From assembly GCF_011634835.1 (NCBI RefSeq), contig NZ_SIRP01000001.1, positions 4,099,092-4,163,091 of the forward strand: a DNA stretch of 64,000 nucleotides. Direction: 5' to 3'. The notes under the pieces were generated by a model. That model was not told the DNA's origin. It searched no databases and saw nothing but the letters and a program-made list of their open reading frames with translations. The position numbers were made by a program, and so were the translations under genes. The stretch's first letter is position 1; the number at the start of each line of letters is the position of its first letter. Positions 8,625 through 57,384 of the stretch are shown one piece after another. The DNA comes from Isoptericola sp. BMS4 (lineage in GTDB: Bacteria > Actinomycetota > Actinomycetes > Actinomycetales > Cellulomonadaceae).

Positions 8625-11600
8625 ATGCAGCCACGACGGTCCCCCGCCCGGCGACGAGCAGCCGGGCTCACCACGACGGCCGTGCTCGGTGCACTGGCCG
8701 CGCTGGGCCCCCTCCCGGCGGCGGGTGCCACCGGGCTCCCCACCGCCACCGCCGAGGACCTTCCCCCACAGGAGCCCGGCGTCACGCTGCGGACGTACGA
8801 CCTGCGGCAGGGCATCGACAGCCTCTGCACGCTCAAGGACGGGCAGACACCGAACGTCGACAAGCTCATGCCCACCGTCGACTGGACGACGGCGGGCGAG
8901 TTCGGGCTCGAGGACAACTTCCTCACCCACGCCCTCGGCAACCTCCAGGTGCCCGCCGACGGCGAGTACACCTTCCGGCTCACCAGCGACGACGGCTCCC
9001 GGCTCTCGATCGACGACCAGGTGGTCGTCGACAACGACGGGCTGCACGGCGAGGAGTCGGTGGACGGCACCGTCACCCTCACCGCGGGGTACCACGAGCT
9101 CCTCGTCGAGTTCTTCGAGGCCGGCGGCGGCCAGGTGCTGCGCCTCGAGTGGCGGCCGCCGGGCGCCGACTCCTTCACCGTCGTGCCGAACGACGTGCTG
9201 AGCACCGAGGCCGGCGTCGTCCGTGTCACCGCCCCCGGCACCAAGTACTGCGAAGGCGCCGAGGACACCGCCGGCGACGGCCTCCCGCTCGACGCCGTGC
9301 ACCCGGCCTACGACCTCACCGACCTGCGGCCCGAGGGCTTCGAGCCGATGGTCTCGGGCATGGACTGGACCGCCGACGGCGACCTCGTCGTCGCGACGTC
9401 CGGGGACGTGAGCCCCGCCGGATGGGAGGACGACCCCCGGACCGGCGAGCTCTTCGTGCTCGACGAGGTCACGGGCGAGACCAGCGCCGACCAGGTCACC
9501 GCGACCCCCGTCGCCGACGGCCTGTTCAACCCCATGGGCGTGGACGTCGTCGGCGACTCGATCTTCGTCTCCGAGCGCGACGGCCTCACCGAGCTGACCG
9601 ACCCCGACGGCGACGGCTTCTACGACACGCGCGAGACCTTCGCCCGGTGGCCGTTCGGCGGCAACTTCCACGAGTTCGCGTTCGGCCTGCAGCACGACGA
9701 GGACTTCTTCTACGTCAACCTCTCCGTCGCCATCAACAACGGCGGCGCGACGACCGACCCGCAGCCGGCGGAGAACCGCGGCACCAGCATCAAGGTCGAC
9801 CGGGACACGGGCGAGGTCACGTACGTCGCCGGCGGGCTGCGCACCCCCAACGGGATGGCGTTCGGGCCCGAGGGCGACCTCTTCGTCACGGACAACCAGG
9901 GCGCCTGGCTGCCGGCCTCCAAGCTCGTGCACGTCAAGCAGGACCGGTTCTTCAACCACTACACCAACCCGGACGGGCCGTTCGACGACCAGCCCGTCAC
10001 CCAGCCCGTCCTGTGGATCCCGCAGAACGAGATCGGCAACTCGCCCAGCGAGCCCGTGCAGCTCACCGAAGGGCCGTTCGCGGGGCAGATGCTCTTCGGC
10101 GACGTCACCTACGGCGGCCTGCAGCGCGGCTTCCTGGAGAAGGTCGACGGGGAGTACCAGGGCGCCGTCTTCCGCCACACCGCCGGCCTGGAGGCCGGGG
10201 TCAACCGCACCACCATCGGGCCCGACGGCGCGATCTACGTGGGCGGCATCGGCGAGGCCGGCAACTGGAGCGAGCCGAACAAGCTGAAGTACGGCCTGCA
10301 GAAGCTCGCCCCGAACGGCGAGGAGTCGTTCGACATCCTCGAGGTGCGCGTCCGCGAGGGCGGCTTCGAGCTCGAGTACAGCCAGCCCCTGTCCGACGAG
10401 ACCGTGGCGAAGATCGCGGAGGACGCCGGGGCGGCCTACGACGTCGACCAGTGGCGGTACGTGCCCACCCAGCAGTACGGCGGGCCGAAGATCGACGAGG
10501 AGGTGCTGCACGTCGCGAGCGCCGCCGTGTCGGAGGACCACACGACCGTCACGCTCGACATCGACGGGCTCAAGCCCGGCCGCGTCGTGCACCTGCGCTC
10601 CCCGCGCCCGTTCAGGGACTCAGACGGCCGCGAGCTGTGGAACACCGAGGCCTGGTACACGCTCAACAGCCTGCCGGGCTACGTGGCACCCGCCGACCGC
10701 GGATACTACGAGGCCGAGGAGGCCGTGCTGCTCGGCTCCGCGGGCCTCGACAGCGAGCACAACGGGTACTCGGGCTCCGGGTTCGTCGACGGCATCCAGT
10801 CCGAGGGCGCCGGGGTCTCCTTCACGGTGACCGCCGACGAGGCCGGTAGCCAGCCCGTCAACCTGCGCTACGCCAACGGGCCGAACCCGTTCGAGGGCGA
10901 CAAGTCCGTGTCGGTCCGCGTCAACGGCACCGAGGTGGACCCGTGGGTGCTGCCCAGCACCGGGGACTGGAAGACGTGGGACTTCGTCACCCGCGACCTC
11001 GACCTGCGGGCCGGCGCCAACACGATCACGCTGCGGTTCGACGAGGGCGACGACGGCAACGTCAACTTCGACGTCCTGTCGCTCGGCGAGGACCCGGACC
11101 TGTGCACCGCCACGGAGCCGGACGCGGGCTACACCGCGCTGTTCGACGGCACGCTGGCCAGCTTCGGCGACTGGCGCCTCGCCGGCGCCGGGTCGTTCGG
11201 CCGCCAGGACGACTGCGTGCTGCGCAGCGACGGCGGTATGGGGCTGCTCTGGCACACCGACGGGCTGGAGGGCTCCTACAGCCTGAAGCTCGACTGGAAG
11301 CTCGTGAAGGACGACAACGGCGGCGTGTTCGTCGGCTTCCCCGACCCGGGGAACGACCCGTGGGTGGCCGTGAACGAGGGCTACGAGATCCAGGTCGACG
11401 CCTCCGACGAGGCCGACCGCACCACCGGGGCGATCTACACGTTCCAGGGCGCCGACCCGGACGCGATCGCCGAGGCGCTGAATCCGGTGCCCGAGTGGAA
11501 CTCCTACGACATCCGTGTCGTGGGCGACACCATCCGGGTCTTCCTCAACGGGGTGCTGGTCAACGACTTCACCAGCACCGACCCGGCGCGGGACCTGTCC

Positions 11601-48989: not shown

Positions 48990-50816
48990 GTGCGCCGTCG
49001 GCCGCCGACCGAGGGAGCCCCCGTGCCTCGCACCCCAGCCCGCACCGCCTCACCGACCCGCCGCCGCGCCCGCGGGCCCGCCGCGCTGACCGCCGCCGTC
49101 GCGGCCGTCGGCCTCGCGGCGCCGGGCGCGCACGCCTGGAGCCCCGCCGGCGTCGTCGACGACCCGGTCACCGTGGTCGCGGACGACGCGCGGATCTCCC
49201 TGGAGCCGCTCGGCTCCTACGCGACCGGCGTCTTCGACGAGTCCGCCGCGGAGATCGTCGCCTACCACGCGCGCTCCGAGCGCCTGTTCTCCGTGAACGC
49301 GCGGGCGGCCGAGGTCACCGCGCTCGACGTGTCGGACCCGGGCGCCCCGCGCCGCCTCTTCGCCGTGCAGACCGCGGGGTTGCGCGCCGCCGACGGCTCG
49401 CGGATCCCCGCGGGGGCCGTGGCGAACTCGGTCGCGGTGCGCGCGGACGGCCTCGGCGTCGTGGCCGTCGAGTCCGACGTGAAGACCGACGCCGGCTGGC
49501 TCGTGCTCTTCGACGCCGCGGGCGACGGGAGCGCGCTGGCCGCCGTGCGCGTCGGGGCCCTGCCGGACATGGTGACCGTCGCGCCCGACGGGCGCACCGC
49601 CGTCGTCGCGAACGAGGGCGAGCCCGCCGACGACTTCTCCGTGGACCCGGAGGGGTCCGTCTCGGTCGTCGACCTCCCCCGCCGGCTCACGGGGAAGCAC
49701 TCCGCGATCACTCAGGAGGACGTGCGCACGGCCGGTTTCCACGCGTTCGAGGGCGACGCGCTGCCGGACGGCGTCCGCGTCACCGGGCCGGACGTCGCGG
49801 ACGCGTCGGGGTCGTCGGCGTTCCGCGTCTCGCGCAACCTCGAGCCCGAGTACGTCACCGTGCCGAAGGGCTCGCGCACCGCGTACGTGACGCTGCAGGA
49901 GGCGAACGCGGTCGCCGTCGTCGACCTGCGCTCCGCCACGGTGACTGACGTGCTGCCCCTGGGCACCAAGGACCACTCGCTCCCGGGCCAGGGCCTCGAC
50001 CCCTCCGACGAGGACGGCGCCGCCGACGTGCGCGAGCTGCCGGTGCGCGGCCTGTACATGCCGGACGGGGTCGCGTCGTACACGTCCCGCGGCGAGACGT
50101 ACCTCGTCACGGCGAACGAGGGCGACGCCCGCGAGTGGGGCGACTACGAGGACGCCGCGCGCGTCAAGGACCTCGGCGACGACGGGCTGGCGCCGGTCTG
50201 CGACGACTCCCCCGCGGCCGGCCTGCTCGACGACGCCGACCTGGGCCGCCTCGACGTCTCCGTCGAGGACGGGCTGCGGCCCGACGGCTCGTGCTACGGC
50301 GAGCTGTACGCCTTCGGCGCCCGGTCCTTCTCCGTCTGGACCACCGACGGCGAGCAGGTCTTCGACTCGGGCGACGACTTCGAGCGGGTCACGGCGGACG
50401 CGCTCGGCGACGCGTTCAACACGGACCACTCCGAGACGAGCTTCGAGGGACGCAGCGACAACAAGGGCCCGGAGCCCGAGGCCGTGACGGTCGGGAAGGT
50501 GGCCGGCCGCACGTACGCGTTCGTCGGGCTGGAGCGCGCGAGCGGGATCATGGTCTACGACGTCACCGTCCCGGCCGAGTCGTCCTTCGTCACCTACGTG
50601 TCGAACCGGGACTACTCCGTGTCCGTCGAGGACGCCGTGGACGACGGCGCGGACCCGGCGTCGACCCTGGCGTCCGCCGGTGACCTGGGGCCGGAGGGCA
50701 TGGCGTTCGTCCCCGCGGGCGCGTCCCCGACGCACCGCCCGGTGCTCGCCGTCGCGAACGAGGTGTCCGGTACGACGACGCTGTTCGAGGTGGACCGCCT
50801 CACCGGGCGCCGCTGA
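48990..50816 (+). CDS. Secreted beta-propeller protein (choice-of-anchor I / phytase-esterase-like family); start uncertain
   Basis: Signal peptide ALTAAVAAVGLAAPGAHA; repeated VANEGEP / VTANEGDA / AVANEVSGT propeller-blade motifs. Confidence 0.55.
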   Translation: MRRRPPTEGAPVPRTPARTASPTRRRARGPAALTAAVAAVGLAAPGAHAWSPAGVVDDPVTVVADDARISLEPLGSYATGVFDESAAEIVAYHARSERLFSVNARAAEVTALDVSDPGAPRRLFAVQTAGLRAADGSRIPAGAVANSVAVRADGLGVVAVESDVKTDAGWLVLFDAAGDGSALAAVRVGALPDMVTVAPDGRTAVVANEGEPADDFSVDPEGSVSVVDLPRRLTGKHSAITQEDVRTAGFHAFEGDALPDGVRVTGPDVADASGSSAFRVSRNLEPEYVTVPKGSRTAYVTLQEANAVAVVDLRSATVTDVLPLGTKDHSLPGQGLDPSDEDGAADVRELPVRGLYMPDGVASYTSRGETYLVTANEGDAREWGDYEDAARVKDLGDDGLAPVCDDSPAAGLLDDADLGRLDVSVEDGLRPDGSCYGELYAFGARSFSVWTTDGEQVFDSGDDFERVTADALGDAFNTDHSETSFEGRSDNKGPEPEAVTVGKVAGRTYAFVGLERASGIMVYDVTVPAESSFVTYVSNRDYSVSVEDAVDDGADPASTLASAGDLGPEGMAFVPAGASPTHRPVLAVANEVSGTTTLFEVDRLTGRR

Positions 50817-50940: not shown

Positions 50941-51420
50941 GTGCGGATGAACGAGGGCGTCGAGTGGGCGGCGCACGTGTGCGTGCTGCTGCACTGGGCC
51001 GAGGAGGGCGGCGACGCCCCGGTGCCGGCCACCCGGCTCGCGGCGGCCTACGACCTGCCCACGGCCTACCTCGTCAAGCAGCTCCAGGCCCTCGGCCGGG
51101 CCGGGCTGACGGAGTCGGTGCCGGGCCGGCGCGGCGGGGTGCGTCTCGCACGGCCGGCGGCGCGGATCACCCTGATGGACGTCGTCGCGGCGATCGAGGG
51201 CCCCGACGACGCCTTCGCCTGCACGGAGATCCGCCGGCAGGGCATGAACGCCGAGCGCCCCGCGCGCGACTTCGCGCAGCCCTGCGGCGTCGCGCACGCG
51301 ATGCGCGAGGCCGAGCTCGCCTGGCGGCGCGCCCTGGCCGCCACCTCGATCGCCGACCTGGCGGGCTCCACGCCCGCCGGGCGCGCCGCCGACGCGCGCC
51401 GCTTCCTCGCGGCGCCCTGA
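50941..51420 (+). CDS. Rrf2 family transcriptional regulator
   Basis: VEWAAHVCVLLHW...ATRLAAAYDLPTAYLVKQLQALGRAGLTESVPGRRGGVRLARP. Confidence 0.85.
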   Translation: MRMNEGVEWAAHVCVLLHWAEEGGDAPVPATRLAAAYDLPTAYLVKQLQALGRAGLTESVPGRRGGVRLARPAARITLMDVVAAIEGPDDAFACTEIRRQGMNAERPARDFAQPCGVAHAMREAELAWRRALAATSIADLAGSTPAGRAADARRFLAAP

Positions 51421-51496
51421 TCCCGGCCACGGCCGCCCCCGACGGCGCACCGTGGTCGATACCTGGATATCCGATATCTGCTTTGAAGGAGACAGC

Positions 51497-51952
51497 ATGA
51501 CGGTCACCGCCGCACGAGAGCCCCGCACCCCCACCCGGACGGCCAGCCCGGAGACGTTCCGGCTGCTGAGGGCGCTCGACGCCCGGATGAGCGAGTCGCT
51601 CGGCGCCGTCCTGTACGACCTCGTCAAGCTGCGCGCGTCCCAGCTCAACGGCTGCGCCTACTGCGTCGACACCCACGCCCGCGACCTCGAGCGGCGCGGC
51701 GTGCCGACCCGTACCGTCCACGGCGTCGCGGCCTGGCAGGAGAGCCCGTTCTTCGACGAGGAGCAGCGCGTCGCCCTCGCGTTCACCGAGACGCTCACCG
51801 CGGGCGTCGGCCACGTGGACGACCACCTGTGGGAGGAGGCCGGGCGCCTGCTGGGCACGGAGCGCCGCGCCGACCTCGTCGTCGCGGTCGGGGTCATCAC
51901 CACCTGGAACATGAGCGCCATCACGACCGGGCTGCGCCCCTCCGCGACCTGA
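51497..51952 (+). CDS. Carboxymuconolactone decarboxylase (AhpD-like) family protein
   Basis: LVKLRASQLNGCAYCVDTHARDL (CxxC / AhpD-core motif). RBS GAAGGAGA. Confidence 0.8.
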   Translation: MTVTAAREPRTPTRTASPETFRLLRALDARMSESLGAVLYDLVKLRASQLNGCAYCVDTHARDLERRGVPTRTVHGVAAWQESPFFDEEQRVALAFTETLTAGVGHVDDHLWEEAGRLLGTERRADLVVAVGVITTWNMSAITTGLRPSAT

Positions 51953-52153
51953 CGGAGAGCTCCCGCCGAGATCTCCGCCGACATCTCCCCGTGGGCGGCG
52001 ACAGGAATGGTGGCCGGCGGCCGGACGGCGGGCGACGCCGCCGTCCGGCTCGACCATCGGTGCAGGTCAGCGGCCTAGCCGCGCCGATTCCGGGCCGACA
52101 CGAGCCCTCAAGATCTCGAACGTGTCACAACTTCCGAGAATGTGAAGAAATGC

Positions 52154-52182
52154 TGGACACCTTTCGGAGGAGTTGCGATAGT
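52154..52182 (+). promoter_or_regulatory. Candidate promoter TGGACA-N17-GATAGT (copy 1 of a duplicated 5' cassette)
   Basis: The same hexamers, spacing and RBS-ATG context (CCAGGGGGGAAGyATGCAG) recur at 54024-54052. Confidence 0.4.
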
Positions 52183-52262
52183 CACTGAGAAGGTCTCTGC
52201 CTCTCGATTCGCCGCGCGCGACCGAGGGGCACCGGTCTTCGACGGACAACCAGGGGGGAAGC

Positions 52263-53852
52263 ATGCAGAGTGCAACGTGGGGTGCCGGGGGGCGCCCCCG
52301 GGGCAGGCCGCGGTGGACACGTGCCACCTCGCTCGTGGTCGCGATGGGGGTCGCGGGCACGATGGTCGGCCCGACCGGCGCGATGCCCGCCGCCGGTCTC
52401 GAGACAACGCAGGTCATACGGTCGCACGGCGCCGTCGCGCACCAGGTCCCCGCGGACCCGCACGTCGATCGGCCCGGCCCGGAGAAGCGTCCGGACGGAC
52501 GGCCCGCGCCCGGCGAGGGACGCCGCGACCGGTCGGAGCGTCCCGGCGAGCACGCGCCGCGCCCGGGCCCCGAGACCACCGACAAGACCACCGACGAGAC
52601 CCGGGTCGTGGACGCCGCGTCGCCGGTGCCGGCCGGCGGCGCGTCGCGCATCCGCTCCTCGGGATGGCGCCCGAAGGCCGACGTCTCGCTCTCGCTCGTC
52701 GGGCCGGACGGCGGCCCCGTCGGCGGTGCGGTGGCCGTGACCGCGAACGCGGAGGGCCGCGTCACGGGCCACGTCACGGTCCCGGTGCCCGCCGGCGCCG
52801 CCGCGGGCGCGTACACCGTGGTCGGCACCGACGAGGACGGCGGTTCCGCGACGGCGCGGATCGACGTGTACGCCCCGTCGCTGGAGGCCACGTCCCCGGT
52901 CCCCGCCGCGGGCCGCACCGGGATCGCCTCGGGCGGCTGGAGGGCGGCGTCCGACGTCACGCTGCGGCTGGCCGACCTCGACGGCAACCCCGCCGGAGAC
53001 CCGACGACCGTGACGACCGACGAGGACGGCGACGTCCCGGCCGGCACCGTCCTCGCCGTCCCCGCCGTGCCGGCGGGAACGACCCTGACGGTCGTCGCCC
53101 GCGACGACGCCGGGGCACGGGTCACGGACGAGGTCACGGTGATCGCGGCCAACGACCCGGTGGTCGACGTGTCGTCGCCGGTGCCGGCCGGCGGCGAGAT
53201 CCCGGTGACGTCCTCGGGATGGCCCGGCGAGACCGACCTCGTGCTGCGGCTGGCGGACGCTGCGGGAGCTGCCGCCGGCGACCCGGTGACCGTGACGACG
53301 GACGCGGACGGCACCGTCCCGGCCGGCACCACCGTTCCCGTGCCGGCCGGCACCGTGGCGGGCGTCCACACGCTGACGGCCGCCGACGGCGCCGGCCGCA
53401 CCGTGTCCGACGAGCTGCGGGTCTACGCGCCGTCCCTGGAGGTCGAGCCGTCGGACGACCCGGACGCGTGCGCCCGGGTCGCGTCGAGCGGCTGGCTCCC
53501 GAGGTCCGAGGTCACCCTGCGGGCGACCTCCACCGACGGGGCACGCCAGGGCGCCCCGACCACCGCGACCGCCGACGAGGACGGGACGCTGACCGACGTG
53601 TGCGCACCCGTGCCCGACGACGTGCCGCGGGACGACGTCACCGTCGTCGCCGTCGACGACGAGGGCGGGCGCGCCACGACCACACCGGCCGCGGACCCGA
53701 TGTCGGGCACACCGGCGCGGACGGTCGGGGCCGGGCTCGAGGTGGGCGACGGTGCCCGCTCGGCCGGCACGCCCGTCGCGGTGCTCACGCTCGTGGTCGA
53801 CGCCGCGACGCTCGTCGCGGCCCGGCTCGCGTCCCTCTTCCCCACCGGATAG
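52263..53852 (+). CDS. Secreted repeat protein with four ~88-aa tandem Ig-like modules (SPVPAGG...SSGW...)
   Basis: Signal peptide LVVAMGVAGTMVGPTGA; four internal repeats; C-terminal hydrophobic segment. Confidence 0.6.
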   Translation: MQSATWGAGGRPRGRPRWTRATSLVVAMGVAGTMVGPTGAMPAAGLETTQVIRSHGAVAHQVPADPHVDRPGPEKRPDGRPAPGEGRRDRSERPGEHAPRPGPETTDKTTDETRVVDAASPVPAGGASRIRSSGWRPKADVSLSLVGPDGGPVGGAVAVTANAEGRVTGHVTVPVPAGAAAGAYTVVGTDEDGGSATARIDVYAPSLEATSPVPAAGRTGIASGGWRAASDVTLRLADLDGNPAGDPTTVTTDEDGDVPAGTVLAVPAVPAGTTLTVVARDDAGARVTDEVTVIAANDPVVDVSSPVPAGGEIPVTSSGWPGETDLVLRLADAAGAAAGDPVTVTTDADGTVPAGTTVPVPAGTVAGVHTLTAADGAGRTVSDELRVYAPSLEVEPSDDPDACARVASSGWLPRSEVTLRATSTDGARQGAPTTATADEDGTLTDVCAPVPDDVPRDDVTVVAVDDEGGRATTTPAADPMSGTPARTVGAGLEVGDGARSAGTPVAVLTLVVDAATLVAARLASLFPTG

Positions 53853-54023
53853 CGGACGGCGGCAGCCCGGAGAACGGTCGCCCGCGGCCCGTCGCCGCCG
53901 TTCTCCGGGTCCCGCCGCGGGCGGCGGCCGGGACGTCCGGGCCGCCGTTCCGGCGCGCCCCGGACCGCGATCGCGCTGGTGGGACCGCGATCCTCAGTTC
54001 GTGATCAAAATGTGACGAACCCC

Positions 54024-54052
54024 TGGACACGGCCGTCGGGAGTTGCGATAGT
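54024..54052 (+). promoter_or_regulatory. Candidate promoter TGGACA-N17-GATAGT (copy 2)
   Basis: See 52154-52182. The shared string GGAGTTGCGATAGT sits 72-81 bp upstream of the two ATGs. Confidence 0.4.
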
Positions 54053-54123
54053 TCCCCCAGGGCCCCTTTTCCGGCACTTCGGACTCGGGGCCTTGATCTC
54101 TGAAATACCACCAGGGGGGAAGT

Positions 54124-55838
54124 ATGCAGAGGAAAGTACGCAGCCTGAAGCGGTCACAGACCGTTCTGGCAGGTGTCGCGATGGGGGTCGCGGGCACCAT
54201 GGTCGCCTCGACGGGGGTCGCGTTCGCCGACACCGTCGACGTCGACCCGCAGGGCTCCGCGGGCGTCGAGGCCGACGCCCTCGCCTCGGACCTGCTGGGC
54301 ACCGCCCTGGCCGGGGCGGACGACTCGGAGAAGGCCGGGGCCGCCGCGAGCGTCTTCGGTTCGAGCCTGCTCGGCAAGGACGTCGCCGGACTCGCGCAGT
54401 CGGAGGCGACGTTCCCGTCGAACCCCGGCCCGAACACGGCCGACCTCGACGTCGAGGCGCTCGGCGACAAGAGCATCAGCGTCGACGGTGTCGACGTCCC
54501 GCTCGACCAGATCATCGACTTCGGCCAGCTGGGCGCGCTGCAGAGCGAGTCCACGGCGACCGACGAGCTCAACACCGAGGCGATCTCCGGCCTGCTGGGC
54601 GCCGACGGCGCCATCACGCTCGACGGCGAGGACGGCGACTTCGGCGCCGCCGAGATCGACCTGCTCTCGCTCTTCGACGAGCTCGAGGTCAACTCGCTGA
54701 CCGACGGCGTCGTCGACGAGGCGACGCTCCGGCTCGGTGCGGGCGGCGCGCGCGTCGTCACCGAGGACGGCGAGTTCGTCGACCCGGACGGCGTGGGTGG
54801 TCCCGGCGAGTACCGCGTCGGCGAGGCGAGCGCCATCGCGCACTCGCCGCTCATCGAGCAGGCCGCCGGCCAGCTCTACGACGCGATCGGCACCTACGAG
54901 AAGCAGCTCGTGGGCAAGGTCAACGAGCTGATCGACACCACGGCGATCACCGGCACCCTGCCGGCCGGCGTGGACCTCAGCGAGACGTGGATCGAGTCGG
55001 ACATCCAGGACAAGGTGTTCGCCGCCGTCCTGGACGAGCCGATCACGACGAAGAACAAGTTCCTCACGATCGACTTCTCGACGGGGACCGCGACGATCCA
55101 CCTCGACCAGCTGCTCTCGGGCGAGCTGCGTCCGGGCCAGCCGACGGGTCTCAACGCGCAGAACCCGAACACGGAGCTCATCGACGACGAGATCTACCCG
55201 ATGATCGCCGAGAGGCGCAGAACCCGAACACGGAGCTCATCGACGACGAGATCTACCCGATGATCGCCGAGAGCGTGCACGACGCCATGAACGAGGCGAC
55301 GCACATCGCGCTCGGTGCGGTCGAGGGCGCGCTCGAGAGCGTCACGATCCACTTCGTCGCGGACGTCACTACGCCGCTGCTCGGCAACGCCACCGCCAAG
55401 TGGGACGTCAACCTCATGAGCGGTGACCTCACCAACGTCACCTGCGAGGGCGAGGGCCTCCTCGGTGGTCTGGGCTGCACGACGCTGAAGACCACGGTGA
55501 GCACGCTGGGCCCGGTCGTCGAGACGGCGCTCGTCCCGGCGCGCGACTTCGTGCTCGGCGACGGCGGTCAGCAGCTCTTCGACACGCTGATCGGCGACAT
55601 CAAGACCGGCGCCATCACGGTGCCGGTGCGTCAGGCGCTGGAGCCGTTCATCGAGCAGGTCGCCCAGGTCGTCTCGGTGCAGGTGAACCACCAGGCGACG
55701 CAGACGTGCACGGCGGACGACGGTTCGGAGCGGACCAGCGGTCTGCAGGTCTCGGCGCTCAGCGTCGGCCTCGTGCCGGCCTCGGACGCCGGGCGGCTCA
55801 ACCTCGGCAACGCCGGGGCGAGCATCACCGCCTGCTGA
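54124..55838 (+). pseudogene. Secreted protein gene disrupted by a perfect 59-bp tandem duplication that shifts the frame
   Basis: ORF 54124..55263 and ORF 53979..55838 both encode the peptide QNPNTELIDDEIYPMIAE in different frames. Removing one 59-bp copy gives a single 551-aa ORF. Signal peptide VLAGVAMGVAGTMVASTGVAFA. Confidence 0.6.
55156..55273 (+). repeat. Perfect 59-bp direct tandem duplication (2 x GCGCAGAACCCGAACACGGAGCTCATCGACGACGAGATCTACCCGATGATCGCCGAGAG)
   Basis: Read directly from the sequence: 55156-55214 equals 55215-55273. Confidence 0.85.
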
Positions 55839-56025
55839 TGCGCGACCGTCGCGCCGGGCACCGGCGCGACCCGCACTGACGCGGGCGTGACCGTGCGGCA
55901 CCACCGCCCGGTCACCCGCACGGAGAACGGCGGTCCGGTACGTCCGGGCCGCCGTTCTCGCGTTGCGCGTCCGCCGTCGTCACGCCCACCATCTCGCCAC
56001 ATATCTCGCCACGTTCGGAGCAAGC

Positions 56026-57384
56026 ATGTCCTCTCGTCGTCTCCTCACGTCGCTGGTCGCCGCCGGGGCCCTCGCGTCGCTGCTCGCCGGGTGCACGGAC
56101 CAGGGCGACGAGTCCCCGCCCGCCGCGGCCGATCCCTCGGCGCCGGGCGCGGCGCAGGAGTGCGAGGACGGCGAGCCCGTCACGCGGACGCTCGACAACG
56201 GCGCGTCGTGGTCGATGTGCTGGTCCGTGGACCCCAAGCTGGGGCTGGTGCTCCGCGACGTCCGGTTCACGCCGACGGGCGCGGACCCGATCCCGATCCT
56301 CGCGTCGCTGTCGGTCGCGCAGCTCGAGGTGCCGTACGACGACGGGGGGCGGTCGACCTCGGACATCACGGAGGCCGGGTTCGGCGGCACGAAGATGAAG
56401 ACCCTCACGGACACGGAGTGCGCCGGCGAACGGCTCGAGACCGCCGTCCCGAACATCGGCGACGGCACGTTCGGCGAGGCGCCGGTGCGCGAGGTGCTCT
56501 GCTCGGAGACCGTGGACACCGGCGTCGGCTACCGGTCCAGCGACGGCGGCACCCTGGTGGCGGACCGGAGCAGCGCGTGGCAGCTCTCGTCGATCTCGAA
56601 GGTCGGCTGGTACGAGTACATCGCGCAGTACTCCTTCGGCTCCGACGGCAGCATCCGGCCGGCCCTCGGCGCGACGGGCGACATCTCCCCCGTCGACTTC
56701 ACCGACCCCGAGCACGGGTGGCCCGTCGGCGAGGGCGACGAGGCCCACGCCGCGAGCCACTCGCACAACGTCGTGTGGCGCGCCCACTGGGACCTCGGCG
56801 CCGGGGGCGAGCTCGCGGCCGAGCAGTACGACGCCGAGCCCACCGGCGAGATGGGCAGCGAGTCCCCCGTCCTGGAGGGGGCGCTGACCCGGCTGCCGAG
56901 GCCGACCACCGCCGAGTGGACCGACCGGCGCTGGTGGCGCGTCCTGGCCCCCGACGTGCTCAACGATGACGGCCACCCCGTCTCGTACGAGATCGACCTG
57001 GGGAAGACCGACTCGTTCGAGTTCACGCACGACCACCACGAGCACGGCGACGACGCCGGCTACGACGTCGCGTTCACGAACGCGGACGAGTGCCAGGTCT
57101 TCGCCACCCACAACGACGGCCAGTGCGGCAGCGGCGTCCTCGACTACGTCGACCGGGGGAAGGGCGACGACCTGGGCGACGTCGTCTCGTGGGTCGCCGT
57201 CGGCTTCCACCACGTGGTGCGCGACGAGGACCAGTCCCCCATGGACACGCACTGGCAGGGGTTCACCCTGCTCCCCCGCGACCTGACGGCGCAGCGCGTC
57301 GCGGTCCCGCCCGAGCGCGAGGAGCTCAACGGCGTCCCGTCCAACGAGTGGACCGAGGAGTACGAGGAGCTGCTCGACGACTGA
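56026..57384 (+). CDS. Putative lipoprotein with a copper-amine-oxidase-like C-terminal fold (low confidence)
   Basis: Lipobox SLLAGCTDQG; HSHNVVWRAHWDLG and VGFHHVVRDED His clusters; acidic C-terminus. Confidence 0.5.
   Translation: MSSRRLLTSLVAAGALASLLAGCTDQGDESPPAAADPSAPGAAQECEDGEPVTRTLDNGASWSMCWSVDPKLGLVLRDVRFTPTGADPIPILASLSVAQLEVPYDDGGRSTSDITEAGFGGTKMKTLTDTECAGERLETAVPNIGDGTFGEAPVREVLCSETVDTGVGYRSSDGGTLVADRSSAWQLSSISKVGWYEYIAQYSFGSDGSIRPALGATGDISPVDFTDPEHGWPVGEGDEAHAASHSHNVVWRAHWDLGAGGELAAEQYDAEPTGEMGSESPVLEGALTRLPRPTTAEWTDRRWWRVLAPDVLNDDGHPVSYEIDLGKTDSFEFTHDHHEHGDDAGYDVAFTNADECQVFATHNDGQCGSGVLDYVDRGKGDDLGDVVSWVAVGFHHVVRDEDQSPMDTHWQGFTLLPRDLTAQRVAVPPEREELNGVPSNEWTEEYEELLDD

Follow-up and report, generated by a model that had tools for sequence, protein, structure and literature searches.

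Some surface proteins of Gram-positive and wall-less bacteria are encoded by families of tandem paralogs, such as the streptococcal emm-like genes and the vlp/vsp lipoprotein genes of Mycoplasma, in which the promoter, leader and signal peptide are kept and the mature part of the protein diverges. In contingency loci, phase variation results from changes in the copy number of tandem repeats. Here we describe two adjacent genes, A (52263-53852) and B (starting at 54124), in a 64-kb stretch of the genome of Isoptericola sp. BMS4 with a GC content of 73% (hereafter the window; all features of the locus are on its forward strand). A and B begin with a repeated 5' segment that comprises a promoter-like element, a ribosome-binding site (RBS) with its start codon and a signal peptide. 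An earlier note on this DNA read the segment as a modular expression and secretion cassette reused in front of two different proteins. We found that the repeat is real and that its explanation is ordinary, namely gene duplication and decay. The repeated segment is very probably the inherited front end of tandemly duplicated surface-protein genes of the choice-of-anchor G (CoA-G) family.

Both genes carry the same promoter-like element, the same Shine-Dalgarno and start context and a Sec-type signal peptide, and all three repeats are found where they had been reported. The promoter-like site before gene A consists of TGGACA (52154-52159), a 17-nt spacer and GATAGT (52177-52182), and the one before gene B of TGGACA (54024-54029), a 17-nt spacer and GATAGT (54047-54052). 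At each site the spacer has GGAGTTGC as its end, and a TG lies one base 5' of GATAGT, as in TG-extended -10 elements. The common block is longer than the earlier note described: positions 52140-52182 and 54010-54052 share AATGTGA[A/C]GAA-N3-CTGGACAC-N8-GGAGTTGCGATAGT, which can be written as the pattern ATGTGA-N-G-N5-CTGGACA-N13-TTGCGATAGT. The second shared element is the RBS and start context CCAGGGGGGAAG[C/T]ATGCAGAG at 52250-52270 and 54111-54131. The third is the core of the signal peptide (52338-52378 and 54175-54215), identical at 37 of 41 nt and encoding the peptides VVAMGVAGTMVGPTG and GVAMGVAGTMVASTG. When both 5' regions are aligned, these elements stand out as three short islands of similarity, between which the sequences have diverged, with indels.

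The pattern CTGGACA-N13-TTGCGATAGT has two matches in 64 kb at up to three mismatches, versus 0.01 expected from shuffles. The RBS pattern and the signal-peptide pattern also have two matches each, versus 0.00 expected, so the repeats are more than a chance resemblance. No further copies of the promoter block, the RBS or the signal-peptide pattern were found in the rest of the window. The bare 14-mer GGAGTTGCGATAGT is uninformative alone (two matches versus 2.5 expected, up to three mismatches). A scan of 51400-56200 with the sigma-70 consensus returned just the A and B sites, versus 0.1 expected, and a re-implemented scan of the whole 64 kb returned three sites, with the TG extension in the A and B sites only. 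The occurrence of the 5' elements in three independent assemblies excludes an artefact of assembly.

The relationship between the two genes is revealed by a 17-kb metagenome contig from the Joint Genome Institute (L001), which is syntenic with the locus and encodes an Rrf2 protein, a CMD/AhpD protein, A, B, a copper (Cu)-amine-oxidase-domain protein, a NUDIX protein and a Band_7 protein. Gene A of this contig (L001-A) shares the promoter block and the CCAGGGGGGAAGTATG context with the window, and its signal peptide is homologous. There follow a complete CoA-G domain (PF28433), about eight immunoglobulin (Ig)-like repeats and the sorting signal LPVTG. The n-region of its signal peptide (LKRSRT) resembles that of B (LKRSQT). 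Because the same 5' end leads in L001-A into a CoA-G domain like that of B (69-71% identical to B proteins), A and B are tandem paralogs and their 5' similarity is inherited. The mature parts had been considered unrelated, a view that L001-A overturns. The earlier note had called the domain of B acidic; both mature proteins are acidic (isoelectric points of 4.4 and 4.05).

The alternative put forward in that note supposes that copying or recombination placed one unit, made up of promoter, RBS and signal peptide, before two genes for unrelated secreted proteins. Within the window there are observations in its favor: the mature parts have no detectable homology, A matches no CoA-G model, and the similarity is confined to three short islands. 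We nevertheless consider such a transfer extremely improbable, given that the full CoA-G domain stands right after the same signal peptide in L001-A, where the n-region and the leader are also homologous to those of B. Moreover, simple domain loss accounts for the difference between A and B, and no features of mobile elements or recombination sites flank the block.

The inheritance of the front end from a common ancestral gene is placed in time by a phylogeny of the CoA-G domain. In a neighbor-joining tree, the B clade (the window, L001 and L027, one of two Logan contigs, L026 and L027, from a sister lineage with 92% nucleotide identity to the window) is sister to an A clade formed by L001-A and P0010 (WP_166851360.1), a third BMS4 paralog from another locus that is 88.7% identical to L001-A. 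Both clades are reciprocally monophyletic and lie inside outgroups from Georgenia, Aeromicrobium and Nesterenkonia. This split implies that the duplication is older than the divergence of BMS4 and L001. The outgroup proteins have a CoA-G domain fused to MG2-like Ig repeats (the Georgenia homologs match MG2 with E values of 1e-19 to 1e-38), and an LPXTG anchor was seen in Georgenia alba (L003). The fused architecture in the outgroups indicates that it is ancestral.

Gene A now encodes a hypothetical protein of 529 amino acids (exact protein P0038). It matches no NCBIfam family, NF033766 included, P0038 has no precomputed Pfam annotation, and our own Pfam comparison gave beta-sandwich matches below threshold only. 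The signal peptide (52263-52388) is followed by a low-complexity linker of 70 amino acids rich in Pro, Arg and Glu (52401-52610), by four Ig-like repeats of about 92 amino acids each (starting at 52620, 52893, 53175 and 53439), by LEVGD (53736-53750) and by a hydrophobic tail (53766-53849). The LPXTG motif is missing: LEVGD (LVGGD in L027) stands where L001-A has LPVTG, an Asp lies within the C-terminal helix, and no basic tail follows.

Alignment to L001 (blastn) locates what was lost. Window positions 52106-52402, from the promoter to the cleavage region of the signal peptide, align to L001 1338-1633, and positions 52611-53656 align to L001 3684-4741, which encodes the last four Ig repeats. 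The approximately 2.05 kb in between (L001 1634-3683), with the CoA-G domain and about four Ig repeats, have no counterpart in the window. At this place gene A has a deletion scar, 208 nt without L001 counterpart (52403-52610). The present difference between the A and B products is thus due to the loss of about 2 kb from A in the lineage of BMS4 and L027. In the sister lineage (L026 and L027), gene A has an equally short form (525 amino acids) with an intact frame. Between BMS4 and L027, the ratio of nonsynonymous to synonymous substitution rates (dN/dS) reaches 0.41 in A, with 0.34 for the Ig repeats and 0.69 for the linker, compared with 0.15 in B and 0.19 in the neighboring gene. On these alignments and rates, we identify gene A as a domain-loss derivative under constraint that is relaxed but still present, and not as another gene that captured a cassette.

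Two further observations concern gene A. The synonymous rate (dS) between BMS4 and the sister lineage is about three times as high in A (0.19) as in B (0.07), and it is just 0.054 in the segment of A that encodes the signal peptide. In addition, an assembled contig with 2x coverage (L028, ENA ERZ511489) contains at 10500-11021 a 0.5-kb piece that is 91% identical to window 52450-52980. The piece comprises the linker and the first Ig repeats of A between unrelated flanks, in a different gene neighborhood. We did not use this contig, which we judged to be probably a chimeric low-coverage assembly; a real rearrangement is possible.

The history that we propose for the pair can be summarized as follows. 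The ancestral A encoded, behind its signal peptide, a CoA-G domain and about eight Ig-like repeats that led to an LPXTG sorting signal. The loss of about 2 kb in the BMS4/L027 lineage removed the CoA-G domain and about four repeats, and left a signal peptide, the 70-amino-acid low-complexity linker, the last four Ig repeats and a degenerated sorting signal. Each copy kept its own putative promoter of the sigma-70/SigA type, with the AT-rich ATGTGA-N-G element before it, its own predicted leader (about 65-75 nt, with a 5' stem-loop), a G-rich Shine-Dalgarno sequence and a Sec-type signal peptide. The short functional elements stayed nearly identical through purifying selection, possibly aided by short gene-conversion tracts, and divergence affected the spacers, the n-region of the signal peptide and the greater part of the leader.

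To describe the conservation of the promoter we aligned seven upstream regions, those of A and B from three lineages (BMS4, L027 and L001) and that of L026. Invariance is limited to ATGTGA-N-G, CTGGACA, TTGCGATAGT and a GG dinucleotide, with variable N5, N9 and N2 spacers. Across the three lineages, the 17-nt spacer keeps its length and not its sequence. Upstream of gene A, the conserved element ATGTGAAG lies within an AT-rich tract, AATGTGAAGAAATG, at 52140-52147 (about -49 to -42, with ATGTGA-N-G invariant in seven of seven sequences). Its role could be that of an UP-element-like tract or of a half-site for an activator. It is followed by a predicted -35 element, C-TGGACA (52153-52159), and a predicted TG-extended -10, TTGC-GATAGT (52173-52182), both detected in the consensus scan and invariant in the seven sequences. 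According to the scans and the alignment, the corresponding block of gene B (54010-54052) consists of ATGTGACG (54010-54017), C-TGGACA (54023-54029) and TTGC-GATAGT (54043-54052). At both sites, 9 of 12 positions match the sigma-70 consensus, the spacer is 17 nt long, the -10 has A as its second and T as its sixth base, and the TG is present.

Invariant hexamers with freely varying spacers are the pattern expected of contacts with RNA polymerase, and not of a palindromic operator. The earlier note had proposed that GGAGTTGCGATAGT is bound by an unknown regulator. This 14-mer contains the -10 hexamer with its TG extension, and it varies in L001-A, which reads GGTCTTGCGATAGT, with GGTCTTGC in place of GGAGTTGC. 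As the 14-mer is not invariant and the conservation falls on CTGGACA, TTGCGATAGT and ATGTGA-N-G, contacts with RNA polymerase would explain it better than an operator. We rejected TAGTNN as an alternative -10 hexamer, as its last base varies (A, G or C). A CRP/GlxR-type site (TGTGA-N6-TCACA) and a sigma-28-type -10 were also considered; the spacing and the -35 do not fit. Two elements specific to gene A lie nearby, namely a near-palindrome, TCAAGATCTCGA, 5' of the promoter (52108-52119) and, in overlap with the shared ATGTGA element, an inverted repeat, TCACA-N11-TGTGA (52125-52145). The two elements are kept in part in L027 and L001 and absent 5' of gene B, and they may constitute an operator (52108-52145).

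A regulator could also be involved in another way, if a dedicated regulator or an alternative sigma factor read ATGTGA-N-G, CTGGACA and TTGCGATAGT together and controlled a small lineage-specific regulon of surface proteins (A, B, P0010 and perhaps others). This would fit the invariance of ATGTGA-N-G and of GG at -21/-20, both beyond the canonical hexamers, and the -10 core CGATA bears a weak likeness to sigma-28-type -10 elements. The block is also lineage specific: a profile search of genome contigs with the CoA-G alignment returned 21 loci from other genera, none of them Isoptericola, and neither the promoter (up to four mismatches) nor the RBS (up to two) was found 5' of their CoA-G genes. 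We consider such a regulon unlikely, however. Both sites score well as housekeeping-type promoters, as described above, no dyad symmetry is common to A and B, the 14-mer is altered in L001-A, and there are no more copies in the 64-kb window or in the 17 kb of L001. A metagenome scan for CTGGACA-N9-GG-N2-TTGCGATAGT gave three matches on unrelated contigs (55-58% GC), two of them inside apparent coding sequence (L023 and L025), and we treated these as chance. All known carriers of the block are paralogs or orthologs of one another, so that common descent is sufficient to explain its distribution.

A GC-rich hairpin with a 12-bp stem (GCCGGACGGCGG / CCGCCGTCCGGC), read from the sequence, follows the CMD/AhpD-like gene at 52020-52049. 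It looks like a terminator that would part this gene from the promoter of gene A. Two GC-rich hairpins lie between the stop codon of A and the promoter of B (53847-53960; predicted fold of -78.8 kcal/mol, z = -2.3). These have no T tract, and a scan for T-tract terminators found none. Given the GC-rich hairpins 5' of each promoter, A and B are probably separate, similarly expressed transcription units, and the two genes may well be co-expressed.

The predicted leader of gene A is about 74 nt long (52189-52262, with the start placed from the -10) and has a 5' stem-loop and a G-rich Shine-Dalgarno sequence, CCAGGGGGGAAG, at 52250-52261. That of gene B is predicted to be about 65 nt long (54059-54123; fold z = -3.0), with a 5'-terminal hairpin (54058-54095) and a second hairpin whose loop exposes the Shine-Dalgarno sequence CCAGGGGGGAAG (54111-54122) and whose 3' arm contains the AUG. 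Despite their divergence, the leader regions of A and B in the window (52189-52275 and 54058-54136) and in L001 (1420-1506 and 5257-5337) have a two-hairpin consensus in common, with compensatory changes in four pairs; here too the second hairpin has the Shine-Dalgarno sequence in its loop and the AUG in its 3' arm. In this consensus 93% of the cells are paired versus 85% in shuffles, a value that none of 500 shuffles reached, and slid controls gave 39-62%. Support from covariation is modest; 3 of 500 shuffles reached the observed score. The consensus is based on five distinct sequences only, from which the structure itself was derived, and the two-hairpin leader is suggestive only. A scan of 51900-54400 with Rfam assigned no family; the single match is at chance level (E = 0.7) and lies in coding sequence on the other strand.

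Gene B (54124-55838) is a clear member of the CoA-G family. It matches NF033766 with 128.4 bits (cutoff 45) over model positions 3-283 of 283, and PF28433 is precomputed on its product, P0002. Its signal peptide (54124-54228, ending …VAFA before DTV) consists, by inspection, of MQRKVRSLKRSQT, then VLAGVAMGVAGTMVASTGV, then the cleavage site between AFA and D. That of A has the n-region RPRGRPRWTR, the h-region SLVVAMGVAGTMVG and a cleavage site between AMPA and AG. As far as can be seen by inspection, in both peptides a positively charged n-region precedes a hydrophobic h-region and a cleavage site of the AxA type, and the two products would be exported by the Sec pathway. The B protein has the CoA-G domain only, with no anchor, and ends right after the domain.

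In BMS4, gene B is interrupted by a perfect 59-bp tandem duplication (55156-55273, with copies at 55156-55214 and 55215-55273) that covers the most conserved motif of the family, AQNPNTELIDDEIYPMIAE. The frame is broken at 55215 and runs into a new stop codon at 55261-55263. The annotated product has 379 or 360 amino acids (P0002 and WP_166851092.1), and the 379-amino-acid form ends at 55263. Removal of one copy of the repeat restores a product of 551 amino acids ending at 55838. The unit occurs once, with identical flanks, in L026 and L027 versus twice in BMS4, and these two contigs encode the intact ortholog of 551 amino acids (P0033). The third paralog, P0010, ends in the frameshift tail of gene B, ERRRTRTRSSSTTRSTR, which can arise only by out-of-frame re-reading of the 59-bp unit. 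In the sister lineage, a search for homologs of P0010 gave no close ortholog. Past the duplication, gene B shows no decay (dN/dS of 0.07). This and the single copy in the sister lineage imply that the duplication either is very recent and was spread by gene conversion between paralogs, or is a polishing artefact.

Gene conversion may have acted more widely. Under concerted evolution, it would be mainly short conversion tracts between the tandem paralogs, and not purifying selection alone, that maintain the identity of the 5' islands. An Ala/Val codon is GCG in A and B of the window and in A of L027, and GCA in B of L027 and L026 (all Ala). In L001 it is GTC (Val), in A as well as in B, and Val is also the residue of P0010. 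The Ala and Val codons differ by two nucleotides, and the state is specific to the lineage and common to the paralogs. The identical 59-bp duplication of B and P0010 and the low dS of the signal-peptide segment of A relative to the whole gene (0.054 versus 0.19) agree with conversion. However, the codon is the single informative one among very few sites, the state of the promoter (GGAG/GGTC) departs from the codon pattern, and the identity at synonymous sites is raised by the strong codon bias of this DNA (73% GC). We regard concerted evolution as possible, if doubtful.

Several points weigh against the account of a simply inherited front end followed by a plain deletion in A. Comparisons of the 208-nt linker with L001-A and with the whole window (blastx and blastn) gave only noise-level matches, and the event in A may be more complex than a simple deletion. 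The A-type gene P0010 at another BMS4 locus makes a history of A by duplication or translocation possible. The Ala/Val codon hints at gene conversion, and part of the 5' identity would then be younger than the duplication of the genes. Finally, the -10 hexamer GATAGT begins with G and not T, and the identification of the conserved hexamers as a putative promoter, like that of the transcription start sites, comes from consensus and conservation only.

A more elaborate scenario joins these elements. The 5' module (upstream element, promoter, two-hairpin leader and signal peptide) would be homogenized by conversion among at least three CoA-G paralogs, a lineage-specific regulator would act on it, and the identical 59-bp duplication of two paralogs, spread by conversion, would turn these surface proteins on and off reversibly. 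We consider this combination very unlikely. If true, it would amount to a small system of phase-variable surface proteins in an actinobacterium of soil or marine habitats.

The genes around the pair offer additional observations. Directly 3' of the CoA-G gene, a Cu-amine-oxidase-domain protein with a lipoprotein-like signal (…LLAGC) is encoded at 55963-57384 (probable ATG at 56026). The gene is found in the same place in L001 (7197-8552) and in two Georgenia species (L003 11970-13301 and L002 10181-11515). This synteny suggests a functional link between the two proteins, and, speculatively, the Cu-amine-oxidase-domain protein could carry out an oxidative modification of the surface protein. 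On the 5' side, the window encodes a choice-of-anchor I family protein of 608 amino acids (48990-50816), an Rrf2-family regulator (50941-51420) and a CMD/AhpD-like protein (51452-51952). The Rrf2-CMD pair is also kept 5' of gene A in L001.

The result is mostly a correction: what appeared to be a portable expression and secretion cassette is a front end conserved between tandem paralogs, of which one no longer has its main domain. The locus also provides a clear example of a promoter footprint, with invariant hexamers and free spacers, and yields a candidate promoter, leader and signal peptide for an uncharacterized family of actinobacterial surface proteins. Modest leads on the CoA-G family are the 59-bp duplication in two paralogs and the pairing of CoA-G genes with a Cu-amine-oxidase-domain lipoprotein gene. 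Among the ten titles listed by our literature search under the general term 'choice-of-anchor', none concerned the CoA-G family or its function, and no confident structural relative was found.

Compared with known systems, the putative promoters resemble extended -10 (TGn) promoters of the sigma-70/SigA type from Gram-positive bacteria and actinobacteria in the -35 (TGGACA, five of six matches), the 17-nt spacer, the TG extension, the A and the T at positions 2 and 6 of the -10 and the AT-rich tract 5' of the -35; they differ in the G with which the -10 starts. Within the NF033766/PF28433 (DUF8394) family of Actinomycetota surface proteins, gene B scores well above the model cutoff, and the ancestral form of A, as represented by L001-A and by homologs from Georgenia, Nesterenkonia and Arthrobacter, has the N-terminal CoA-G domain, Ig-like repeats and C-terminal sorting signal of the family. 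Gene A of the window departs from it by the absence of the domain, and gene B by the absence of an anchor and by the frameshift in the BMS4 assembly.

As in contingency loci, a perfect tandem repeat inside a coding sequence puts the frame off, and related lineages have one copy. The unit here is 59 bp long, unlike in those loci, and occurs in one or two copies only, and the difference separates lineages that are 92% identical rather than clonal variants; it may also be an assembly or polishing artefact. With the emm-like and vlp/vsp families, A and B share the arrangement of adjacent paralogs that have nearly identical 5' signals for expression and export and dissimilar mature regions. Unlike those families, A and B have neither a hypervariable region nor site-specific switching of cassettes, and no invertible elements or recombinase sites were seen at the A/B locus; the dissimilarity of A and B comes instead from one domain loss.

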